From: a virus
Length of the DNA stretch: 64,000 nucleotides
Virus record (IMG/VR): IMGVR_UViG_3300048035_000135
Coordinates: 31,864 to 95,863 of that record
Reading direction: 5' to 3' (one strand)
The position numbers were made by a program, and so were the translations under genes. Under the pieces are notes generated by a model that saw only the letters and a list, made by a program, of their open reading frames with translations, was not told where the DNA came from and did no database searches. Positions 62,930 through 63,078 of this stretch are shown one piece after another; positions within the stretch are counted from its first letter, which is position 1, and every line of letters starts with the position of its first letter.

Positions 62930-63001
62930 AGCGGGAAGGTGGAACTGCCCCACCATCTCCGTACTGGAAGTACGGCGAGTTTCTCTTAACTCTTTTCCCG
63001 C
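62930..63001 (-). tRNA. Non-canonical tRNA-Gly(TCC), copy 1
   Basis: GCGGGAA AA GAGT TAAGAGAA ACTC G CCGTA CTTCCAG TACGG AGAT GGTGG GGCAGTT CCACC TTCCCGC T: full cloverleaf with atypical core; no encoded CCA. Confidence 0.85.
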
Positions 63002-63006
63002 AGTTG

Positions 63007-63078
63007 AGCGAAAGGTTGGAACTGCCCCAACTTCTCTACACTGGATGTGTAGCAAGTTTCTCTTAACTCTTCTCTCGC
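63007..63078 (-). tRNA. Non-canonical tRNA-Gly(TCC), copy 2 (A33)
   Basis: GCGAGAG AA GAGT TAAGAGAA ACTT G CTACA CATCCAG TGTAG AGAA GTTGG GGCAGTT CCAAC CTTTCGC T. Confidence 0.8.

Follow-up and report, generated by a model that had tools for sequence, protein, structure and literature searches.

A family of rewired tRNA-Gly(UCC)-like genes in uncultured phages as putative glycyl carriers for Mom-family DNA modification

Two tandem cloverleaves in the genome of an uncultured marine phage belong to a conserved family of tRNA-derived RNA genes, and probably act as private, non-proteogenic glycyl carriers for DNA modification by Mom-family enzymes. Two observations made by sequence comparison favour this reading, namely that the identity elements for glycyl-tRNA synthetase (GlyRS) are invariant in the family and that its members co-occur with Mom genes. 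It agrees with the main proposal of an initial annotation of the same DNA, in which the pair was thought to represent glycine donors diverted to a phage transferase, with DNA among the possible targets. The window analysed here is the last 64 kb of the 95.9-kb IMG/VR record IMGVR_UViG_3300048035_000135 (G000), which is 52% complete and terminates within a tRNA array. The phage is a marine, T4-like myovirus with a G+C content of 33%; it is present in many seawater metagenomes, and its portal protein and the one of Flavobacterium phage immuto share 49.5% identity. All genes around the RNA pair are carried on the minus strand (Table 1).

Table 1. Features around the RNA pair (positions are those of the 64-kb window).
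Feature	Position	Strand	Description
Copy A	63078..63007	minus	72-nt tRNA-Gly-like cloverleaf; no encoded CCA
Spacer	63002..63006	minus	CAACU, 5 nt, between copies A and B
Copy B	63001..62930	minus	72-nt tRNA-Gly-like cloverleaf
tRNA-Ala(UGC) and tRNA-Ser(UGA)	63394..63558	minus	canonical; ARAGORN; Rfam 67.3 and 61.3 bits
Upstream ORF	63063..63317	minus	84 aa; ORF list; no Pfam match
Downstream ORF	62568..62906	minus	112 aa; starts 23 nt past copy B

The two cloverleaves described in the initial annotation were recovered where they had been placed, and their stems pair as quoted there, with differences between the copies in the acceptor stem (GCGGGAA/TTCCCGC versus GCGAGAG/CTTTCGC), the anticodon stem (CCGTA/TACGG versus CTACA/TGTAG) and the T stem (GGTGG/CCACC versus GTTGG/CCAAC). 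The minimum-energy fold of each copy is a 7/4/5/5 cloverleaf (z = -3.2 for copy A and -4.7 for copy B). Copy A combines the anticodon loop CAUCCAG (A33, anticodon UCC) with A8, U14, the D loop UAAGAGAA, the T loop GGCAGUU and U73, while copy B has the anticodon loop CUUCCAG (U33, UCC) and the same D and T loops. The A8 with U14 in both copies, the GGCAGUU loop with its retained C56, and an A33 in one copy had all been read correctly. The D loop had been described as lacking both G18 and G19, which is correct for G18, replaced by A18, and incorrect for position 19, which in the 8-nt D-loop numbering is a family-invariant G. Measured against the canonical tRNA core, A8, U14, A18, G54, G55 and G58 replace the consensus, and U33 is found in copy B and not in copy A. 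The sequence of copy B recurs identically in six other viral contigs, and the 5-nt spacing is seen again in tandem pairs of related contigs.

The expectation that standard scanners would miss the pair holds true of default ARAGORN, which calls neither copy, and of the Rfam tRNA model (RF00005, gathering threshold 29 bits), which reported neither in a search of 1.2 kb, even with the cut-off relaxed to E<=10; ARAGORN names both as tRNA-Gly(tcc) at -ps80, the lowest threshold tried, or in mitochondrial mode. Both programs identify the adjacent Ala and Ser tRNAs as canonical, as had been stated. A third tRNA-like element is located at 63910-63986 (minus strand), barely at the Rfam threshold (29.7 bits) and without an ARAGORN call. 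It has a canonical acceptor and T arm, a replaced D arm, a long extra arm and an anticodon-like loop CUUAUAC (UAU); the array of a related contig (L004) includes a normal tRNA-Ile(UAU).

The family was collected with two DNA patterns and two covariance models (R1 and R2). The search of viral contigs that had been suggested as a check returned about 50 different sequences from at least 40 uncultured IMG/VR contigs, often as tandem pairs, and the GNAT enzymes co-occurring with them are of the Mom family. Members share the D loop YAARAGAR, the T loop GGCAG, the anticodon loop C-N-W-CCAG and the ends GC...GC-U. With model R1 copy B scores 103.3 and copy A 97.1 bits (both are in the seed), and 40 further distinct members score 60-103 bits in the family models. 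Among 42 distinct members the stem positions pair in 99.8% of cells, with compensatory double changes in 17 of the 22 pairs and in all four stems, a level reached by none of 500 shuffles, while slid controls pair at 40-49%. The cloverleaf structure is far beyond chance, which confirms these as real, conserved, tRNA-derived RNA genes and bears out the earlier claim of selection rather than decay. When the region was compared by blastn to 50,697 GenBank phage records no real match was found, and the family has so far been seen only in uncultured contigs; a pattern scan of bacterial genomes gave no family member among the 80 loci listed. Two intermediates exist, one with a UGCGAUU T loop and 39 bits with the Rfam tRNA model (L002:4964-5035), the other with canonical D and T loops combined with A8 and an 8-nt anticodon loop (L068:5445-5516), which points to a normal tRNA-Gly(UCC) as the likely origin of the family. 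A further conserved element, about 70 nt long and apparently structured, lies between family members in L002 (4700-5105, minus) and L009 (50-170, plus); it contains AAAGAUUGAGAUAAGGCCGCUCA and has no Rfam match.

The distribution of conserved and altered positions fits a selection for charging, not for decoding, as judged from the alignment. Invariant in the 42 members are G1, C2, G10, U13, A18, G19, C35, C36, A37, A44 and G45, and also G53, G55, C56, C61, G71, C72 and U73. These include G1-C72, C2-G71, U73, C35 and C36, which we take to be the GlyRS identity set, and the initial annotation had rightly pointed to its retention in the two copies. Of the tertiary positions, G10, A21, R26, A44, G45, G19-C56 and G53-C61 are retained, the elbow pair G19-C56 probably so because G at position 19 and C56 are both invariant. 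Three layers of the core are replaced: U8-A14 by A8-U14, G18-Psi55 by A18-G55 and T54-A58 by G54-G58. In the anticodon loop, position 33 is A in 23 members, U in 18 and G in one, so that U33 is absent from 24 of the 42; at position 34, 30 members have U and 12 have A. Residues 32 and 38 form a Watson-Crick pair throughout (C-G in 41 members, U-A in one, and A-U in a further member, L402), which narrows the anticodon loop to five bases. In addition, 38 of the 42 have U51-A63 in the T stem, where the canonical neighbours have G51-C63.

We infer the processing of these RNAs, their charging, their exclusion from the ribosome and their use by Mom, in the following order. The two RNAs would be transcribed on the minus strand together with the tRNA array and the adjacent ORFs, trimmed by the tRNA-processing enzymes of the host and provided with CCA by its CCA-adding enzyme. 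Glycine would then be loaded by the host GlyRS, which is proposed because G1-C72, C2-G71, U73, C35 and C36 are kept. The Watson-Crick 32-38 pair, the loss of U33 (copy A), the rewired D/T elbow (A8-U14, A18, G54-G55 and G58) and U51-A63 would make the products poor substrates for translation. The glycyl-RNA may instead become the donor for Mom-family GNAT enzymes, encoded in the part of the phage genome that is missing from the contig, which would transfer glycine to the N6 of adenine in double-stranded DNA, where a rearrangement would give N6-carbamoylmethyl-adenine and protection from restriction.

The main rival to a carrier role is residual translational use, in which the RNAs are ordinary tRNA-Gly(UCC) with an odd but functional core that supply GGA/GGG decoding in an AT-rich phage. 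This is an unlikely explanation, although parts of the data suit it. The RNAs share a strand with the tRNA arrays in which they lie, and the canonical tRNAs there read mainly codons ending in A; most of these arrays have a Gly(GCC) and lack a canonical Gly(UCC). The loop of copy B, CUUCCAG, is one base off the canonical CUUCCAA, and the retained G10, A21, R26, A44, G45, G19-C56 and G53-C61 make an L shape likely; with U33, the UCC anticodon and the probable G19-C56 pair, copy B may do some decoding. Against this stand the missing U33 in more than half of the family, the A34 in 12 of the 42, the covariation of an always Watson-Crick 32-38 pair and the phage L061, which has CAACCAG copies only. 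The family is moreover kept in genomes with few tRNAs (three canonical ones in G001, which is complete at 213 kb, and five in G002), and in G107 a canonical tRNA-Gly(UCC) and a family member occur together. The glycine codons of the phage studied here are GGT in 62% and GGA in 28%; codons ending in A are dominant for Ala, Ser, Arg and Leu, matching the canonical phage tRNAs. The idea that the RNAs fill an empty Gly(UCC) slot in the array was downgraded in view of the genomes with three to five tRNAs, the coexistence in G107 and the GGT-dominant codon use. Finally, a translational role leaves the adjacency to Mom genes unexplained.

This adjacency appeared when the ORFs around all family members were clustered to find their neighbours. 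The most divergent members (in L016, L018, L038, L040 and L078) lie outside tRNA arrays, and their neighbour is always a Mom gene of PF25680 (E-values of 1e-17 to 1e-52); L402 is a sixth case of an RNA adjoining a Mom gene. In these six the RNA and the Mom gene share a strand and are separated by 3-130 nt, or the RNA overlaps the end of the gene. At the level of whole genomes, every family-bearing record of at least 90% completeness, six in all, has Mom genes above the Pfam cut-off, one to three in each; five T4-like records, 94-100% complete, have two or three each, and the complete 31.7-kb phage G018 carries Mom as well. Five of the six complete genomes are of one T4-like lineage and are thus not independent. 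Among the partial large records Mom is present in two of four. None of 43 random viral contigs, including 10 near-complete ones, has a Mom gene over the cut-off, and a search of 42 of them with model R2 gave a single weak match (17.3 bits, E = 0.004), which did not fall in a near-complete contig. The nearest cultured relatives, Flavobacterium phage immuto and Microcystis phage Mel-JY01, have neither the family RNA nor Mom, which in these two genomes is consistent with a link. In the reverse direction the association is weak: an RNA lies within 3 kb in only two of 80 sampled Mom loci of the L018 type, and a strict cloverleaf scan of the 80 loci found no other NCC cloverleaf; the RNA is thus an accessory of some Mom genes and not a constant partner. 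In G008 a Mom-adjacent gene is shared with the window; it encodes a UvdE endonuclease and is uninformative as a link.

In the T4-like relatives a pair of neighbouring Mom paralogues, each about 250 aa long, is accompanied at 3-7 kb by a third that is shorter (about 205-215 aa); they are clustered at 132958-137587 in G002, 138988-146043 in G004 and 122706-131100 in G003. Each genome has one or two RNA paralogues, and the RNA lies within the tRNA array, about 57 kb away from the Mom genes. One of the G002 paralogues matches the Mu Mom structure 8bv8 (E = 6e-12), and the Pfam E-values reach 1e-48. The 95.9-kb record of G000, at 52% completeness, contains no Mom gene, and the presence of Mom in this phage is deduced from synteny with G002, a relative about 73% identical, which we count against the carrier reading. 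The two phages are collinear (portal 73% identical, blastn blocks 67-82% identical), and in each the portal and the RNA are about 58 kb apart. The G000 record corresponds to G002 from about 159 kb, via the ends, to 77 kb; the equivalent of 77-159 kb is missing, and as the G002 Mom genes at 133-137.6 kb fall there, Mom would be placed in the missing half of G000.

Other large phages with Mom genes (G081, G082, G083, G095 and G106; L212, L213 and L216-L219) have other aberrant tRNA-Gly(UCC)-like genes, with near-canonical elbows and either G33 with G38 (CGUCCAG) or an 8-nt loop (CAUUCCAG). These are often paired, some are missed by ARAGORN, and in at least G081 a canonical Gly(UCC) lies beside them. 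These genes suggest that a glycine carrier unfit for translation can be reached by several routes.

The sites altered in the family (T54, Psi55, A58, G18, U8 and U33) are also in the loops that tRNA enzymes recognise most often, and other phage tRNAs are reported to evade anticodon nucleases via changes in the loop. The RNAs might accordingly be nuclease-proof or modification-proof replacements, or decoys, that escape or soak up the tRNA-cleaving nucleases of the host. We regard this as improbable. A replacement would still have to decode, yet positions 33 and 34 vary, and a pure decoy needs no invariant GlyRS identity set. The rewiring is besides confined to the Gly(UCC) type, with canonical Ala, Ser and Gly(GCC) neighbours, and the linkage to Mom is not accounted for.

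The immediate surroundings of the pair raise a further alternative, that of tRNA-shaped processing or stability signals, at which cutting by RNase P/Z would separate or stabilise the flanking mRNAs with no carrier role. ORFs abut both ends of the pair, and the 84-aa ORF overlaps copy A by 16 nt, its last five codons coinciding with acceptor and D-stem bases and its stop with the D-loop UAA; the RNA likewise overlaps the end of the Mom reading frame in several Mom loci. An RNase P cut at G1 of copy A would leave the mRNA of the 84-aa ORF without its stop codon. For such a signal the shape of the acceptor and T arm would suffice. It would account neither for the invariance of C35, C36 and U73, nor for D- and T-loop sequences kept exactly while the stems diverge, nor for the specific link to an enzyme using Gly-tRNA, and we regard it as very improbable. 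The overlap between the 84-aa ORF and copy A is kept in L001, L003, L004, L005, L010 and L013, with substitutions that, judged by eye, are of the coding type. Homologues of the 112-aa ORF hold the same position in 15 loci. Further downstream, 1.2 kb from the RNA pair, genes for a thymidylate-synthase homologue (Pfam E = 5e-91), a 4HBT thioesterase and a protein with an MGS-like domain lie in this order (60048-61761, minus strand); this cluster may relate to nucleotide metabolism or to further base modification. RNA-library contigs cover the region of the pair, and two of them, from two studies (X16 and X18), stop at 63024/63025, corresponding to position 54 in copy A; as ends of low-depth contigs, with DNA carry-over possible, they hint faintly at the end of an RNA or at a stop of reverse transcription.

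If the RNAs are indeed glycyl carriers for Mom, a more far-reaching possibility is that the family and Mom form a self-contained, orthogonal module for DNA hypermodification. The rewired elbow (A8-U14, A18-G55 and G54-G58) would here be read by the Mom paralogues, which would differ in their DNA specificities or products, two RNAs would feed two or three Moms, and the glycine flux would be fully insulated from host translation and from the tRNA-modifying and tRNA-cleaving enzymes of the host. We hold this extended version to be doubtful. The less demanding carrier role would, if true, already mean that viruses supply their own aminoacyl donor for DNA hypermodification, and would explain the tRNA-Gly-like loci long noted beside mom genes. 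It would also expose a class of tRNA-like genes overlooked by standard annotation tools and offer a natural scaffold, probably charged by GlyRS yet poorly used by the ribosome, that could be useful as an orthogonal carrier.

Canonical phage tRNA-Gly(UCC), such as those of G107 (L210:300-374) and T4, share with the family the GCG...CGC-U end, the UCC anticodon, C32, a length of 72-75 nt and the location in arrays. They have U8, A14, G18G19, the T loop UUCGAAU, A38 and G51-C63, where the family has A8, U14, A18, GGCAG, G38 and U51-A63; the canonical anticodon loop is CUUCCAA or UUUCCAA, without the G38 of the family. Dedicated translation-unfit tRNA-Gly carriers are so far known from staphylococcal cell-wall synthesis, where the non-proteogenic tRNA-Gly lack G18-G19 and U55, have an extra C-G pair, which makes their anticodon loop shorter, and carry weak EF-Tu determinants (PMC13443448). 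The phage family resembles them in several respects: both are UCC-type glycine acceptors, putative ones in the phages, occurring beside proteogenic tRNA-Gly and with few modification sites left, both lack G18 and U55 and have an extra C-G pair closing the anticodon loop, and the enzyme served, or proposed to be served, is in both cases of GNAT fold and works on an aminoacyl-tRNA. The likeness between the weak EF-Tu determinants and the U51-A63 of most phage members is suggestive at best. The phage RNAs differ in being phage-encoded and not cellular, in keeping G19, which S. aureus does not, in the A8-U14 swap and the loops YAARAGAR and GGCAG, and in often losing U33 and varying position 34, and their proposed acceptor is adenine in DNA as opposed to peptidoglycan. 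As the resemblance is drawn from features and not from sequence homology, it may be convergent.

On the side of the enzyme, the closest parallel is the Mom protein of phage Mu (PDB 8bv8, PF25680), a GNAT that transfers glycine from Gly-tRNA-Gly to the N6 of adenine in double-stranded DNA, whereupon the adduct rearranges on the base (PMC13219725); relatives of the phage studied here encode two to three proteins of this family. Mu Mom accepts all E. coli tRNA-Gly isoacceptors and rejects Gly-tRNA-Ala (Silva et al., Nat Commun 2026, PMC13219725; preprint 2023). The rejection implies that Mom reads features of the tRNA-Gly body, and the use of all host isoacceptors counts against the need for a dedicated carrier. 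Mu itself lacks a tRNA gene and uses any isoacceptor of its host, in contrast to the phage-borne, translation-unfit carrier proposed here. Phage-encoded or dedicated carriers are not mentioned in the paper on Mu Mom (PMC13219725), and no proposal of a dedicated carrier for Mom was found in the literature searched. A precedent for the genomic arrangement is provided by the ssrA islands of Dehalococcoides, in which a conserved tRNA-Gly-like 'pseudo-tRNA' is embedded in a mom homologue (McMurdie et al. 2011, PMC3146451), for which no function was proposed because the donor used by Mom was unknown in 2011. Compared by description, the Dehalococcoides element differs from the phage family in its length of 76 bp, its position in the first 150 bp of mom and its occurrence in bacterial islands; it shares with L016, L018, L040 and L078 the physical joining of a tRNA-Gly-like element to mom.
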